Shown in pieces: positions 15,916-44,902 of a DNA stretch of 64,000 nt; positions within the stretch are counted from its first letter, which is position 1; each line of letters opens with the position of its first letter. The notes beneath the pieces are model-generated. The model saw only the letters and a list, made by a program, of their open reading frames with translations. It did no database searches and was not told the DNA's origin. Source of the DNA: Felis catus (lineage: Eukaryota); the NCBI RefSeq assembly GCF_018350175.1, contig NC_058368.1:38690001-38754000 (forward strand), given 5' to 3'. The translations under genes were made by a program, and so were the position numbers.

Positions 15916-16490
15916 TTTTTATTTTACTTCTTATTTAAGCATAACTGTTAGCTTAAGGTATATATCATAATGAGTCAGTATTTTTATACATCATGAAATG
16001 ATCCTCTTGAAAAATCTAGTTACCATCTGCCACTGTACAAAGTGTTTATTATTGACTATATTTCCTATGCTGTATATTACATTCCTGTAACTTATTTTAT
16101 AACTGGAAGCTTACCTCTTGATTCCCTTCACCTTTTTCACTTGTCCCCAGCCACTATGCCCTATGGTAACCAACAGTTTGTTTCTTGTATCTATGAGTAA
16201 GTTTCTGTTTTGTTTATTCGTTTATTTTTTAAAATTCTGCATATAAGTGAAATCAAATAAGATTTGTCTTCTCTGACTTTCATATTTTCTTCTAGATCTA
16301 TCCATGTTGTAGCCAATGGCAATTTCATTCTTTTTTATGGTTGAGTAATATTCCCGTGTGTGTGTGTGTTTACACTATATCTTCTTTGTCCATTCATTTA
16401 TCCATGGACACTAAGCTTGCTTCCTTATCTTGGTTATTGTAAAGGATGCTGCTATGAACATAGAGGTGCATATATCTCTTAGTATTGGTT
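15916..16490 (-). mobile_element. carnivore L1 3' end (last part of ORF2 plus 3'UTR)
   Basis: tctagatctatccatgttgtagccaatggc...gctgctatgaacatagaggtgcatatatct are L1 3' motifs; T-rich tail at the left end. Confidence 0.85.
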
Positions 16491-17995
16491 TTACGTTATT
16501 GACATGATATTTTACATTTTTTTGTTTTGTGTATCCCTTAACTACTTACTGTAGTTATAGTTGACTTTACTATTTTTGCTTTTTAACCCTCATACTAGAT
16601 GTTATGTGGCCGATCTACTGCCTCTAATATGGATTAACCTTTGCAGTGTGTTTTTTTCTTTCATATTTTTTTAAAATTTCTAGTTAAAGCCTTTTTCTCC
16701 CACTTAAAGAGGATGCTTTAACATTTCTCATATGGCTGATTTACTGATGATGAGTATCTCTTAAAGATAACCTTGCTGGGTAGAGTATTCTTAGTTGTAA
16801 GTTTTTACTTTTCTGCACTTTAAATATATCCTTCAACTTCTTCTGGCCTGCAGAGTTTGTGCTGAAAATCAGCCAATAGTATTGTGGGGCTTCCCTTGTA
16901 TGTGTTTTTGTCTTGCTGCCTTTAAGATTCTCTCTTTATATTTAACTTGTCACTTTAATTACAATGTGTCTTGGTGTGGATTCTTTGAGTTCATCTTTTT
17001 TGGTGCTCTCTGAGTTTTCTAGACCTGGATGTCTGTTTTTATACCCACATTAGGGAAGTTTTCAACTATTATTTCTTCAAATGAGTTTTCTGCCTCTTTC
17101 TTTCTTTCTTCTTTTGGGACCCCTATCATGCAAAAGTTAAATATGCTTGATTATTGTCTCAGAGGCCCCTTAAATTGTCCTCATGTAAAAAAATATTTTT
17201 ACAGTTCTGTTGTGGATTTCCACTCTTCTGTCTTCCAGATCATCGATCTGCTCTTCTGTATCATTTAATCTACTTTTGATTCCCTCTAATGTATTTTGCA
17301 TTTCAGTTTTTGTATTCATCAGCTTTGATTCTTTTTTATATTTTATCTTTTTGAAGTTTTTAGTGTGTTCCTCCATTTTTTCCCCAAGTTCAGTGAGCAT
17401 CTTTATGACTATTATTTTGAAATCTTTATCAGGTATATTACTTACTTCCATTTTATTAGGGCCTTTTCTTGGGGTTTTATCTTGTCCTTTTTTGGAATAT
17501 ATTCTTCTGCTCCATAATTTGTTTGACTTTCTGTGTTTATATCTATGAATGAGGTGGAACAGCTGCCTTTCCTGGTCTTGAAGGAGTGGCCTCTTATAGA
17601 AACATATCCTGGTCAGATTGCATGTGCCTGACAGCTGTGGCAGGCCATCTGGGTCTGGAGCAGGTGCAGTTGGGATCCTAGGTTGCACCTTACTAGGGCC
17701 ATCTTGGTGGGTTGAATGAAGTTGGTGGGGGTTGGTCCCAGGTCTGCTGTGTGGGCCCATCTTGGTTGGATCAAACAGCAGGAGCAGGTATGGGTGGGGG
17801 GAGGGGGGGTGGGGCCTGGGGCACTCTGCACCACGGCCTCCTTGATGGCAGTGAGTTGGGTGTGGGCTCAGTGGGTTCTGAGGTGTTCTGTGCCAGGGCC
17901 ACTTTGTCAGGATGGCTGGAGCTACAGTGGGTACAAGTCAGGGCTGCCTTGGTAGGAAGCTAGGTTTGGAGTGGGTTTGGGCCAGGGATGTCCTG
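16491..17995 (-). mobile_element. L1 5'UTR, ORF1 remnant and inter-ORF spacer
   Basis: ORF 17170..17760 encodes an ORF1p-like coiled coil (PDKDFKIIVIKMLTEL...NTLEGIKSRLNDTEEQIDDLEDR); GC-rich 5'UTR at about 17560-17995. Confidence 0.85.
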
Positions 17996-18394
17996 TGAGT
18001 CTTTTTCTCAATGTTTCAATGACAAATGAATGTTCTTTTCTAAAATTAGCTAACATTTAATGACTATCCCATACTACATATATGCTGTGAATCACAGTTA
18101 TTCAGGTTTCTTTTCTTTTCACATGTGTGTATGTAAATATCATGTTTTTGTTAGGAAGTCTTGGACAGTTTTTAAATATGTTAAATATTGTGGTACAGAA
18201 TGGGTTTTGGAAACTGGTCTGTTTTCTCTGCTGTCTTGATCATGTATGGAGTTTGTAAGGCTGGTTTCAGAAGGAGGCAATGGAGATAAAACATAGGAAT
18301 GTAAGAAAAGTGTAGGGACTCAGAAGGATAATTAAAGACTATGAATTATGAACTAGTTCCACTCCTTGGGAGAATCTAAAAATTGTAAGTAAAA

Positions 18395-37645: not shown

Positions 37646-38398
37646 GTATATTACATACAATATATAATAGATTATACACAAGATGCTTTGCATTTAGGTC
37701 TGTATAGGAAAAGTAATCTCTTGAGGGATATAAGGACATGGTACTTATTCATTCATAGATCCTGTTAATGAGACCGTATAGGAAATTATATGAACTTGAC
37801 CATCATGTTCCTTATTATGGTTTAATTTCCCATTTTTAAAATTTAGCCACATATCATATTGGCTAAATGTTTCTGAAATCAATATTGGGTCTGCTTAACT
37901 TCTCCCAGACAACATTATATTTTTGGGCTTTCATTTTAATAGTGCTTGTGCTGCCATTATTAATTTTATCCATTTAATGATACTCTTGAGTTGATGATTT
38001 GACTCCAACAGTATTGTCAGAGTTGAAAAAATAGGTATTAAAATATAAATGTGCCACCTTGGTCAGAGTCAGTGTCACTTAGTCATGAACTGCTTAACTC
38101 TTTAAAAAATTGTTTTTTAGCATAGTTGGATTTATTAAAATGTTATCTAAGTGTAATCTTGTCTTCTAGTGAGAAGTATTTGATGTTTGTTAATTCTTTA
38201 AATAAGTGCTGTGGAATACACTTTGGAAATCTAAATGAATAACCATTACTAAAATTTACTTAGCGTTTGATTTGTTTTTGAAATACACTACCTATCATTT
38301 TTTAAAATTGCGTTTGATATAATTAAAGAAAATAACATAAATACATTTTAAATATTTTCTTATTTATTTTGGCTTAACAATTTAAAAATAATTTTGAG

Positions 38399-38611
38399 GG
38401 GCTCCTGGGTGGCTCAGTGGGTTAAGCGTCTGACTTCAGCTCAGGTCACAATCTCGCGGTCTGTGAGTTCGAGCCCCGTGTCGGACTCTGGATGGCTCAG
38501 AGCCTGGAGCCTGCTTCCGATTCTGTGTCTCCCTCTCTCTTTCCCCTCCCCGGTTCATGCTCTGTCTCCTCTGTCTCAAAAATAAATAAACATTAAAGAA
38601 AAAAATACAAA
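38399..38611 (+). mobile_element. Can-SINE
   Basis: Head ggctcctgggtggctcagtgggttaagcg; 16-bp TSD taaaaataattttgag / taaaaacaattttgag (38383-38398, 38612-38627). Confidence 0.96.
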
Positions 38612-38728: not shown

Positions 38729-39288
38729 TTTTTACCTAACGGTTATTAATTATAGACATCATGTTGCTAGTTTTGTTATCTTTTATTTATCTCAAAAATT
38801 GCATTGGTCTTGGGAGGAAGATTGTGGCATAGGAGGATGCTGGGCTCATCCTGTCCTGCTGATCACTTAGATTCCACCCACATCGGCCAGAAGACTAGCA
38901 GAAAGGATTCTCCAGAGCCAAGCATAGACAAGAGGCCCACAGAAGAGGGGCCCCTCCTGAAGCGGACCACCAAAGGCAAAGCAAGCTGAGTCTGCCCCTC
39001 CCACCCCTGTGCACCTTGCGGATCCACCCTGGCTAATAAGCCAGATCTCACAGAAGCAGCACCACAAGCCTGGCAGTGTGCAAGTGGCCCAGACAGGGGC
39101 CACACCACTCAACAGTGAGACCTGCCTCTGGGAGAGGAGAAGATAAGGGACACACCAGTCTGTGGCCCCAGCAGTGGGCTGGGGGCAGACATCAGGTCTG
39201 ATTGAGGACCCGCCCACCAATCCAAATTACTCCAGACAGCACAGAGGAAGAACCCTGCAGTTCCCCTCCACTCCACGGACTATCCAAA

Positions 39289-40175
39289 ATGACAAAACAG
39301 AAGAATTCCTCTCAAAAGAAACTCCAGGAAGTAGTGACAGCTAACAAACTGATCAAAAACAATTTAAGCAATGTAACAGAAAATGAATTTAAATAATAGT
39401 CATAAAATTAATTGCTGGGCTTGAAAAAAGTATAGAGGACAGCAGAGAATCTGTTACTACAGAGATCAAGGGACTAAGAAACAGGAGGAGCTAAAAAATG
39501 CTATAAATGAGCTGCAAAATAAAATGGAGGTGAACACAGCTTGGATTGAAGAGGCAGAGGAAAGAATAGGTGAATTAGAAGATAAAATTTTGGAAAAAGA
39601 GGAAGCTGAGAAAAATAGAGATAAAAAAATCCAGGACTATGAGGAGAGAATTAGAGAACTAAGTGATGCGATAAAACATGATAATATACGCATAACTGGG
39701 ATTCCAGAGGAGGAAGAGAAAGGGAAAGGGGCTGAAGGTGTACTTGAAAAAATAGCTGAGAACTTCCCTGATCTGGGGAAGGAAAAAAGCATTGAAATCC
39801 AAGAGGCACAGAGAACTCCCTTCAGACATAACTTGAATCAATCTTCTGCACAACATATCGTAGTGAAACTGGCAAAATATAAGGATAAAGAGAAAATTGT
39901 GAAAGCAGCTAGGGATAAATGTGCTCTAACATATAAAGGGAGACCTATAAGACTAGTGACGGATCTCTCTACTGAAACTTCGCAGGGCAGAAACGAATGG
40001 CAGGAAATCTTCAATGTGATGAACAGAAAAAAAATATGCAGCCGAGAATCCTCTATCCAGCAAGTCTGTCATTTAGAAGAGAAAAAGAGATAAAGGTCTT
40101 CCCAAACAACAAAAACTGAAGGAATTCAGCACCACTAAACCAGCCCTACAAGAGATCCCAAGGAGGATCCTGTGA
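39289..40175 (+). pseudogene. L1 ORF1p (RNA-binding protein), disrupted
   Basis: ATG at 39289 (MTKQKNSSQKKLQE...); ORF 39524..40093 has EEAEERIGELED, NIRITGIPEEEE, ENFPDL and YKGRPIRL motifs; premature stop and frameshifts near 39394 and 40030. Confidence 0.92.
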
Positions 40176-40225
40176 GACAAGGTACCAGAGATATCACTAC
40201 AAGCATGAAACCTATGGACATCACA

Positions 40226-43200
40226 ATGACTCTAAACCCATATCTTTCTATAATAACACTGAATGTAAATGGAATAAATGTGCTGACCAAAAGACATAGG
40301 GTATCAAAATGGATAAAAAAACAAGACCCATCTATTTGCTGTCTACAAGAGACTCATTTTACCCTGAGGACACCTTCAGATTGAAAGTGAGGGGATGGAG
40401 AACTATCTATCATGCTACTGGAAGTCAAAGGAAAGCTGGAGTAGCCATACTTATATAAGACAAACTAGACTTTAAAAGCTGTAACAAGAGATGAAGAAGG
40501 GCATTATATAATAATTACAGGGTCTATCCATTAGGAAGAGCTAACAATTATAAATGCCTATGCACCAAATACGGAGCCACCAACTATATAAAATAATTAA
40601 TCACAAACATAAGCAACCTTGTTGAAAACAATGTGGTAATTTCAGGGGGCTTTAATACTCAACTTAGAACAATAGGTAGATCATCTAGACACAGGATCAA
40701 TAAGAAACAAGGGCCCTGAATGATACATTGGATCAGATGGACTTGACAGATATATTTAGAACTCTGCATCCCAGAGCAACAGAATATACTTTCTTCTTGA
40801 GTGCACATGGAACATTCTCCAAGATATGTCACATACTGGGTCACAAAACAGCCCTTCATAAGTATACAAGAATTGAGATCATACCATGCATACTTTCAGA
40901 CCATAATGCTATGAAGCTTGAAATCAACCACAGGAAAAAGTCTGGAAAACCAGCAAAAGCATGGAGGTTAAAGAACACCCTACTAAAGAATGAGTGGGTC
41001 AACCAGGCAATTAGAGAAGAAATTAAAAAATATATGGAAACGAACGAAAATGAAAATACAACAATCCAAACACTTTGGGATGCAGCGAAGGCAGTCCTGA
41101 GAGGAAAATACATTGCAATCCAGGCCTATCTCAAGAAACAAGAAAAATCCCAAATACAAAATCTAACAGCACACCTAAAGGAACTAGAAGCAGAACAGCA
41201 AAGGCAGCCTAAACCCAGCAGAAGAAGAGAAATAATAAAGATCAGAGCAGAAATAAACAATATAGAATCTAAAAAAACTGTAGAGCAGATCAATGAAACC
41301 AAGAGTTGGTTTTTTGAAAAAATAAACAAAATTGACAAACCTCTAGCCAGGCTTCTCAAAAAGAAAAGGGAGATGACCCAAATAGATAAAATCATGACTG
41401 AAAATGGAATTATTACAACCAATCCCTCAGAAATACAAGCAATTATCAGGGAATACTATGAAAAATTATATGCCAACAAACTGGACAACCTGGAAGAAAT
41501 GGACAAATTCCTAAACACCCACACACTTCCAAAACTCAAACAGGAGGAAATAGAAAGCTTGAACAGACCCATAACCAGCAAAGAAATTGAATCAGTTATC
41601 AAAAATCTCCCAACAAGTAAGAGTTCAGGAACAGATGGCTTCCCTGGGGAATTCTACCAGACATTTAAAGCAGAGATAATATCTACCCTTCTCAAGCTAT
41701 TCCAAAAAATAGAAAGAGAAGGAAAACTTCCAGACTCCTTCTATGAAGCCAGCATTACTTTGATTCCTAAACCAGACCGAGACCCAGTAAAAAAAAAAAA
41801 AAAAAGAGAACTATGATATACCTGATGAATATGGATGCAAAAATTTTCAGTAAGATACTAGCAAATCGAATTCAACAGCGTATAAAAAGAATTATTCACT
41901 ATGATCAAGTGGGATTCATTCCTGGGAGGCAGGGCTGGTTCAACATTTGCAAATCAATCAATGAGATACATCATATTAATAAAAGAAAAGATAAGAACCA
42001 TATGATCCTGTCAATCAATGCAGAAAAAGTATTTGACAGAATTCAGCCTCCTTTCTTTTTTTTTTTTTTAATGTTTATTTATTTTTGAGACAGAGAGAGA
42101 CAGAGCATGAACAGGGGAGGGTCAGAGAGACAGGGAGACACAGAATCTGAAACAGGCTCCAGGCTCTGAGCGGTCAGCACAGAACCCAATGCGAGGCTCG
42201 AACTCACGGACTGCGAGATCATGACCTGAGCCGAAGTTGGTCGCTTAACCGACTGAGCCACCCAGGCGCCCCTCAGCCTCCTTTCTTAATAAAAACCCTC
42301 GAGAAAGTCGGGATAGAAGGAACATACTTAAACATCATAAAAGCCATTTATGAAAAGCCCACAGCTAATATCATCCTCAATGGGGAAAAACTGAGAGTTT
42401 TCTCCCTGAGATCAGGAACACAACAGGGATGTCCATTCTCACTGCTATTGTTTAACATAGTGTTGGAAGTTCTAGCATCAGCAATCAGACAACAAAAGGA
42501 AATCAAAGGCATCAAAATTGGCAAAGATGAAGTCAAGCTTTCACTTTTTGCAGATGACATGATATTATATACGGAAAACCCGATAGAGTCCACCAAAAGT
42601 CTGCTAGAACTGATACATGAAGTCAGCAAAGTCTCAGGATACAAAATTAATGTACAGAAATCAGTTACATTCTTATACACTAATAATGAAGCAACAGAAA
42701 GACAAATAAAGAAACTGATCCCATTCACAATTGCACCAAGAAGCATAAAATACCTAGGAATAAACCTAACCAAAGATGTAAAAGATTATATGCTGAAAAC
42801 TATAGAAAGCTTATGCAGGAAATTGAAGAAGATATAAAGAAATGGAAAAACATTCCGTGCTCATGGATTGGAAAAATAAATATTGTCAAAATGTCAATAC
42901 TACTCAAAGCTATCTACACATTCAATGCAATCCCAATCAAAATTGCACCAGCATTCTTCTCGAAACTAGAACAAGCAATCCTAAAATCTGTATGAGACCA
43001 CAAAAGGCCCGAATAGCCAAAGTAATTTTGAAGAAGACCAAAGCAGGAGGCATCACAATCCCAGACTTTAGCCTCTACTACAAAGCTGTAATCATGAAGA
43101 CAGCATGGTATTGGTACAAAAACAGACACATAGACCAATGGAATAGAATAGAAACCCCAGAACTAGACCCACAAACGTATGGCCAACTCATCTTTGACAA

Positions 43201-44274
43201 AGCAGGAAAGAACATCCAATGGATAAAAGACAGTCTCTTTAACAAATGGTGCTGGGAGAACTGGACAGCAACATGCAGAAGGTTGAAACCAGACCACTTT
43301 CTCACACCATTCAGAAAAATAAACTCCAAATGGATGAAAGACCTGAATGTGAGACAGGATACCATCAAAACCCTAGAGTAGAAAGCAGGAAAAAAAAAAA
43401 AAACCTTTCTGACCTCAGCCGCAGCAATTTCTTACTTGACACATCCCCAAAGGCAAGGGAATTAAAAGCAAAAATGAACTATTGGCACCCCATGAAGATA
43501 AAAATATTCTGCACAGCAAAGGAAACAACCAACAAAACTAAAAGGCAACCAACGGAATGGGAAAAGATATTTGCAAATGACAATCGGACAAAGGGCTAGT
43601 ATCCAAAATCTATAAAGAGCTCACCAAACTCCACACTCGAAAAACAAATAATCCAGTGAAGAAATGGGCAGAAAACATGAATAGACACTTCTCTAAAGAC
43701 ATCCAGATGTCCAACAGGCACATGAAAAGATCCTCAATGTCGCTCCTCATCAGGGAAATACACATCAAAACCACACTCAGATATTACCTCATGCCAGTCA
43801 GAGTGGCTTAAATGAACAAATCAGGAGACTATAGATGCTGGAGAGGATGTGGAGAAACGGGAACCCTCTTGCAGTGTTGGTGAGAATGCAAAGTGGTGCA
43901 GCCACTCTGGAAAACAGTGTGGAGGTTCCTCAAAAAATTAAAAATAGATCTACCCTATGACCCAGCAATAGCACTGCTAGGAATTTACCCAAGGGATACA
44001 GGAGTGCTGAGGCATAGGGGCACTTGTACCCCATTGTTTATAGCAGCACTGTCAACAATAGCCAAATTATGGAAAGAGCCTAAATGTCCATCAACTGATG
44101 AATGGATACAGAAATTGTGGTTTATATACACAATGGAGTACTACGTGGCAATGAGAAAGAATGAAATATGGCCCTTTGTAGCAACGTGGTTGGAACTGGA
44201 GAGTGTTATGCTAAGTGAAATGTCATACAGAGAAAGACAGATACCATATGTTTTCACTCTTATGTGGATCCTGA
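40226..44274 (+). pseudogene. L1 ORF2p (endonuclease/reverse transcriptase), disrupted
   Basis: MTLNPYLSIITLNVNG, CCLQETH and SDHNA (EN); [16 protein letters not shown] at 42547-42558; C-terminal LWKTVWRFL; multiple frameshifts, stops and a SINE insertion. Confidence 0.95.
42058..42272 (-). mobile_element. Can-SINE inserted in the L1 RT domain
   Basis: Perfect 15-bp TSD tcagcctcctttctt at 42043-42057 and 42273-42287. Confidence 0.97.
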
Positions 44275-44902
44275 GAAACTTAACAGAAGTCCATGGGGGA
44301 GGGGAAGAAAAAAAAAGAGGGTAGAGAGGGAGGGAGCCAAAGCATAAGAGACTCTTAAAAACTGAGAACAAACTGAGGGTTGATGGGGGGTGGGAGGGAG
44401 GGGAGGGTGGGTGATGGGTATTGAGGAGGGCACGTGTTGGGATGAGCACTGGGTGTTGTATGGAAACCAATTTGACAATAAATTTCATATTAAAAAGAAA
44501 AAAAAAGAAAAAAAATTGCTTTGGTCTTAGAATAGAAACAAGGGACTTTTCTCTGTCTAATACTCTGTGAGGCTATATTAACAAAATCGTGTTTTACTTT
44601 ATTTACTTTTGAAGAGGTATTATGATGTTTTATTCCTTTTCCGTAAAAAATGTCACTTTAACACTTTCTTCATATATTTCACATATTTCCTCTTAAATTT
44701 TTAATTATATTGTTTCTACTAATAGCAGTTTTCTTTTATGCTTTAAAATCCTTTTTTCTTAAGTACTTATGTGTCATGTTTTCTCATACTCCATAGTAGT
44801 TAACAGTTATGATTGTATTAGAAAAAGTCAAGCCTCATTTTGAATACTCTATGACTTCATCTTCTCATGAATCCTGGATTTCACATAGAGATACAGTATA
44901 AC

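Follow-up and report, generated by a model that had tools for sequence, protein, structure and literature searches.

In the current study, we analysed a 64-kb stretch of cat DNA (the window) that carries a felid L1 of 5.7 kb on the forward strand (38812-44510), bracketed by an 18-nt target-site duplication (TSD) with one mismatch and ending in a poly(A) tail. The bottom-strand nick context is of the L1 endonuclease type, reading TTTT/G and not TTTT/A, and with the TSD, the poly(A) tail and this T-rich site the insertion carries hallmarks of target-primed reverse transcription (TPRT). As an earlier note on this DNA had claimed, the element starts at its true 5′ end directly after the TSD: alignments of other copies begin in the bin 38800-38819, and only 477 nt of 5′UTR separate position 38812 from the ATG of ORF1 at 39289, which is likewise retained. 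The copy is old and dead, with both ORFs broken, a SINE in ORF2 and CpG depleted (observed/expected 0.10-0.14 in the retained UTR), and no second copy of its 5′UTR was found elsewhere within the 64-kb window (Table 1). The SINE in ORF2 is an antisense insertion that, together with its perfect 15-nt TSD, occupies 42043-42287, and another SINE lies directly upstream of the L1 (~38395-38605). An older L1 on the reverse strand (~16320-18000) differs in its C-rich 5′ region, and its ORF1 has decayed; the element appears to jump near 16480 into L1 3′-end sequence, without most of ORF2, and appears to be a deletion or a half-L1-like element.

Table 1. Features of the felid L1 and its surroundings, in window coordinates.
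Feature	Position	Strand	Basis or remark
5′ TSD, 18 nt	38794..38811	+	Nicked at TTTT/G, a variant L1 endonuclease site
5′UTR retained block 1 (putative exon 1), element 5′ end to splice donor	38812..38948	+	Other copies start in bin 38800-38819 and depart after 38949
Separate 21-nt deletion site between two 5-nt repeats, not GT-AG	38884..38886	+	Loose ends; 7-codon gap; 0/125 others
Proposed splice joint GGGG; GT-AG register cuts at 38948/38949; 426-429 nt lost	38947..38950	+	
5′UTR retained block 2 (putative exon 2), acceptor to ORF1	38949..39288	+	Other copies enter at 38948; ATG 39289
Equivalent of the probable downstream alternative acceptor of P0078; CGG here, CAG in at least P0090	39019..39022	+	Inferred from translations
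ORF1, disrupted by frameshifts and stops; approximate end	39289..40175	+	
ORF2, disrupted by stops, frameshifts and a SINE; both ends approximate	40226..44274	+	
Later SINE in ORF2, own 15-nt TSD (42043-42057, 42273-42287)	42058..42272	-	
Polyadenylation signal and degenerate poly(A) tail (tail 44492-44510)	44477..44510	+	
3′ TSD	44511..44528	+	

The letters at 38941-38960 are as first read, including the GGGG at which the earlier note had placed a splice junction. Three cuts yield the observed joint, and the middle one (38948/38949) removes a piece running from GT to AG. The flanks of this piece were read from other copies. Four of 24 listed public runs were aligned to 38760-39340 at 80% likeness, namely two DNA runs from two organisms (X1 and X4) and two RNA runs; loose-end figures come from 24 of the 677 rows listed. 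On the donor side, the alignment of contigs extends through 38949, after which they read TAGGA.. (108 in X1 and 65 in X4 among the rows listed), and on the acceptor side contigs enter at 38948 from pyrimidine-rich sequence that ends in ..CCACA (80 in X1 and 72 in X4, again among the rows listed). Because contigs leave and enter in this way in the DNA runs of both organisms, unspliced copies read AGG/GTAGGA on the left and CAG/GGCCCC on the right. The earlier note had given the donor flank GTAGGA as well as an acceptor made of a pyrimidine tract and CAG, and had expected the missing segment to begin with GT and end with AG at 38948/38949; all of this agrees with the flanks of the other copies. 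In two unspliced translated copies that span both ends, the removed piece measures 426 and 429 nt, and therefore the whole UTR would be ~925 nt long with the donor near nt 159.

Pairing of this donor with the motif at the 5′ end of U1 is calculated at -8.6 kcal/mol, where a perfect site would reach -11.6 and the 13 other GT sites of the retained UTR reach -5.8 at best, and the residues G-R stand at the donor in the translations of 99 of 118 unspliced copies. On the other side, 16 of the 20 bases preceding the acceptor are pyrimidines, and C, the residue that defines the acceptor, is read in 56 of 58 antisense copies that are in frame. Within the range looked at for a branch point (18-40 nt upstream), a candidate A lies at -29, and the stretch from this A to the acceptor is free of AG. 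Its majority context is CGAC; the CTGAC given in the earlier note is not supported as the family majority. The antisense residue at this position (n = 42) is S in 26 copies, L in 11 and another in 5, a mix that would fit a CpG decaying to TGAC in some copies. The RNA runs, of which 1-2% of each was read, cover the UTR; six loose-end rows were listed for each, and none of these falls at the junction. No piece crossing the joint was among the 16 contig pieces listed out of 12,287, and the depth around 38948 is compatible with either case.

Two further observations may bear on the strand opposite to the L1. In RNA run X24 (38820-39060), first mates on the plus strand (~48-70) outnumber those on the minus strand (~14-37) within the initial 140 nt of the UTR, which, if the library is stranded in the usual way, would mean antisense transcription out of the felid L1 5′UTR. 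The UTR also holds an antisense frame (38867-39226, minus strand) of 119 codons without a stop. In many other copies this open frame extends to ~150-250 codons and often starts with a Met in a comparable position; it has no Pfam match. This frame may reflect chance in GC-rich DNA, or it may correspond to primate ORF0, which we take to be its possible counterpart.

A loss with these boundaries could also have arisen on DNA, by microhomology-mediated repair or by the L1 reverse transcriptase jumping, at a short run of G common to both ends, the GT..AG being coincidental. The two ends of the lost piece share AGGG, their longest common word (4 nt), and GG in the observed register, and on account of this 2-nt ambiguity a DNA or reverse-transcriptase jump could leave identical letters. 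Loss at the DNA level does occur in the window copy: 60 nt upstream, at 38884/38886, there is a true microhomology deletion of a net 21 nt between two 5-nt repeats, accompanied by one substitution and with ends that are not GT-AG. It is supported by 46 loose ends ahead of 38886 in run X1 and by a 7-codon gap relative to other copies, and it was seen in the window copy only, none of the 125 other sense-frame copies described below lacking these 21 nt. Internal deletions in the removed piece are also found in two other copies (P0079 and P0080), and the joint of a third (P0090) is ambiguous. Against such an origin stands, first, the register of the joint. Collapse of the longest microhomology is rejected, since a 4-nt word predicts three G (EGPSS in the antisense translation, EEGPS followed by a stop in the sense one), whereas GT-AG removal leaves the four that are observed, and the argument that the earlier note had built on this difference holds; the 2-nt register is compatible with four. 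All five copies known to carry the joint are of the four-G form, and the three-G reading occurs in 0 of 77 antisense matches and in no sense tail among 125. Secondly, GT..AG boundaries are rare by chance. With the retained UTR, not the removed piece, as background, 0.33% of 79,003 possible deletions of at least 70 nt can be read as GT..AG in some register and 0.11% as GTR..YAG, and Markov resamples put to the same test gave 0.57% and 0.14%, respectively. The joint is thus more than chance, at 0.1-0.6% per random deletion, and a stricter filter (G at -1, G at +5 and a pyrimidine tract) was passed by none of the 79,003 retained-UTR deletions. Thirdly, the same left end is paired with other AG right ends in further copies. 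A loss at the DNA level is, in our judgement, very unlikely.

Recurrence of the joint was examined through chance frames of the GC-rich UTR that gene callers had translated in public ENA contigs, queried with the window frames across the joint; for these other copies, there are only translations of short contigs to go by, and contigs can swap copies. In the antisense frame, 75 of 77 matches reach the site, and 74 of the 75 read into the removed piece while one (P0048) has the window joint. The sense frame gave 125 distinct matches (24 from one search and the best 120 of 443 from another, 19 of them shared, with 323 weaker ones outside the count), of which 118 read into the removed piece, three (P0073, P0075 and P0146) have the same joint and the remainder comprises P0078, P0089, P0090 and one other. 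As the queries carried the spliced form, these counts bracket the frequency (3/443 to 3/125 in sense, 1/75 in antisense) and do not measure it. A naturally short-UTR L1 subfamily is rejected by the 118 sense and 74 antisense relatives that read into the removed piece. The family consensus is not contiguous at the site, and the joint is not unique, being present in four other distinct copies. These four differ beside the joint from one another and from the window copy, and all of them keep the 21 nt that the window copy has lost. DNA-pattern scans of viral contigs and metagenome contigs returned no match, and of the 9 candidates from a protein scan for ORF1 in viral contigs, none was confirmed.

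In P0089, the same donor is joined to an acceptor 120 nt upstream, a distance that agrees with that in the unspliced P0091, and four mismatched residues follow the joint. In P0078, it is joined to a downstream acceptor, a microhomology joint also being a possible reading. Judging from these translations, both probably represent the same donor joined to other acceptors. P0090 joins the same donor region to a point ~20 nt before the main acceptor, which fits either a 4-nt microhomology or an AG arisen by CpG decay.

P0205 and P0075 have the same flank and the same first 56 residues, the former being unspliced and the latter spliced; public contigs therefore mix L1 copies, and their flanks and distant sites are unreliable. 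With L1 being a high-copy repeat and chimeric contigs present in public data, one might suspect an assembly or library artefact in the window as well, but matching TSDs enclose the element and the joint also stands in four unrelated contigs with other variants. Moreover, an assembler should not be able to join sequences on an overlap of only 2 nt, nor should such an overlap between contigs be able to produce the joint itself. We consider an artefact exceedingly improbable.

Recurrence could instead mean that a single spliced or deleted ancestor remained active and founded a small subfamily with a short UTR, to which the five copies belong as descendants. A tree of 43 columns (4 spliced and 26 of the 118 unspliced copies) has no well-supported branch and does not reject a single spliced clade (p-AU 0.286); P0073, P0075 and P0048 have a common allele type just downstream of the joint; and a human element of this kind revived by a host promoter has been described in the available text of a recent preprint (10.1101/2025.02.02.635956). 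In the unconstrained tree, however, the 4 spliced copies take 4 changes, and spliced copies show no excess likeness to one another (0.78 for spliced-spliced, 0.78 for spliced-unspliced and 0.77 for unspliced-unspliced pairs), the four nearest neighbours of each spliced copy being unspliced. The window copy differs from the other spliced copies at a site segregating 51 to 64 among unspliced copies, and at a linked two-site subfamily marker (n = 56) it is of the type found in 50 of 56 while P0048 is of the type found in 5 of 56. The alternative acceptors, too, require separate events. Descent from a single ancestor strikes us as quite unlikely, and the spliced copies may well have arisen independently.

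We hold with high confidence that the window L1 is a spliced integrated L1 (SpIRE), that is, one that came from a full-length RNA spliced within its 5′UTR and then retrotransposed in cis. The interpretation of the earlier note, a spliced and retrotransposed L1, is supported and withstood the three refutation tests that were run. The element bears TPRT hallmarks, its joint is exactly compatible with GT-AG removal and the joint recurs; the cut itself was presumably made on RNA. Because the loss matches a splice cut and the same cut is found in other copies, SpIRE-type copies also arise in cat-family genomes. In this scheme, a full-length felid L1 would have been transcribed from its internal promoter, and the spliceosome would have excised a GT-AG intron of ~430 nt from the ~925-nt 5′UTR, using the donor near nt 159. 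The spliced RNA, with ORF1 and ORF2 intact, would then have been translated, reverse-transcribed in cis and inserted at the present site by TPRT, the copy later decaying through the 21-nt deletion, frameshifts, the SINE and loss of CpG. This splice would have occurred repeatedly, affecting ~1-2% of the copies that have a 5′ end, and at times the donor would have been paired with other acceptors. To judge from human SpIREs, the promoter would have been crippled and the window copy is probably a dead end.

The window copy itself is an inert fossil. Some 'full-length' cat L1 annotations are probably promoter-dead, and the joint supplies a junction k-mer whose occurrences can be counted in felid assemblies at large. 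The 5′UTRs of primate and carnivore L1s are not known to be related. The RUNX3 motif is TGYGGT. With a second mammalian lineage showing the same layout at a similarly low frequency, the retention of splice sites by L1 becomes a comparative question. In the available text of their paper, the SpIRE authors ask why L1 retains splice sites that cripple it (PMC5860796), and the accessible part of an accompanying primer takes up why the donor is kept, citing overlap with a RUNX3 site (PMC5860798). While the human donor is explained there by this overlap, no TGYGGT motif was found at the felid donor within the retained block. It is conceivable, if doubtful, that carnivore and primate L1s keep a donor 100-160 nt from their start as a promoter-proximal U1-binding site needed for full-length transcription, and not by an accident of RUNX3 binding. 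Should this be true, SpIREs would be a price that L1 pays throughout the mammals. That price would be tuned as source elements age and their decaying CpGs give rise to branch points (CGAC to TGAC) and acceptors (CGG to CAG).

Like an ordinary internal DNA deletion of L1, of which the 21-nt loss at 38884/38886 is an example, the window copy lacks a piece whose ends share a few letters. Unlike such a deletion, the large loss does not use the longest microhomology, agrees with splice signals and is found again, with ends identical to the base, in other copies. The nearest known system is that of human L1, in which SpIREs were defined by Larson et al. (2018; PMC5860796). According to the available text of that paper, human SpIREs have TSDs and poly(A) tails and lower promoter activity, and both this loss and the splicing of the RNA were shown by experiment; one donor, at nt 98, is used with several acceptors, 524 nt being lost in the commonest form, and 116 of 6,609 full-length copies (1.8%) are SpIREs. 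In the open literature searched, SpIREs are described only for human L1, with no carnivore case. The words 'cat' and 'dog' are absent from the available text of PMC5860796, 'spire' occurs 0 times in that of a 2026 review of dog retrotransposons (PMC13756887), and the accessible portions of two other reports (10.1101/2022.02.16.480772 and PMC6466679) hold no relevant case.

As far as the same texts allow a comparison, the felid copy resembles the human intra-5′UTR forms SpIRE97/622 and SpIRE97/790 (PMC5860796) in its full 5′ end, its GT-AG-bounded loss within the 5′UTR, its TSD and its poly(A) tail. In both lineages, one donor within the first 100-160 nt is used with several acceptors, the loss being 524 nt in human and 426-429 nt in felid copies, and the frequency is low (1.8% in human; 1/75 and 3/125 in felid copies, with search bias). 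A RAP1GDS1-driven human SpIRE source element regained activity through a host promoter, as described in the available text of the preprint cited above (10.1101/2025.02.02.635956); it and the window copy are both intra-5′UTR forms, but the human one was reactivated, whereas the window copy has broken ORFs and no sign of progeny. In contrast to the human SpIREs as reported in these texts, the felid copies, known from sequence only, belong to a carnivore L1 lineage with a donor and an acceptor of its own. The mechanism has been known in human since 2018, and it is the lineage, felid and carnivore, that is new.
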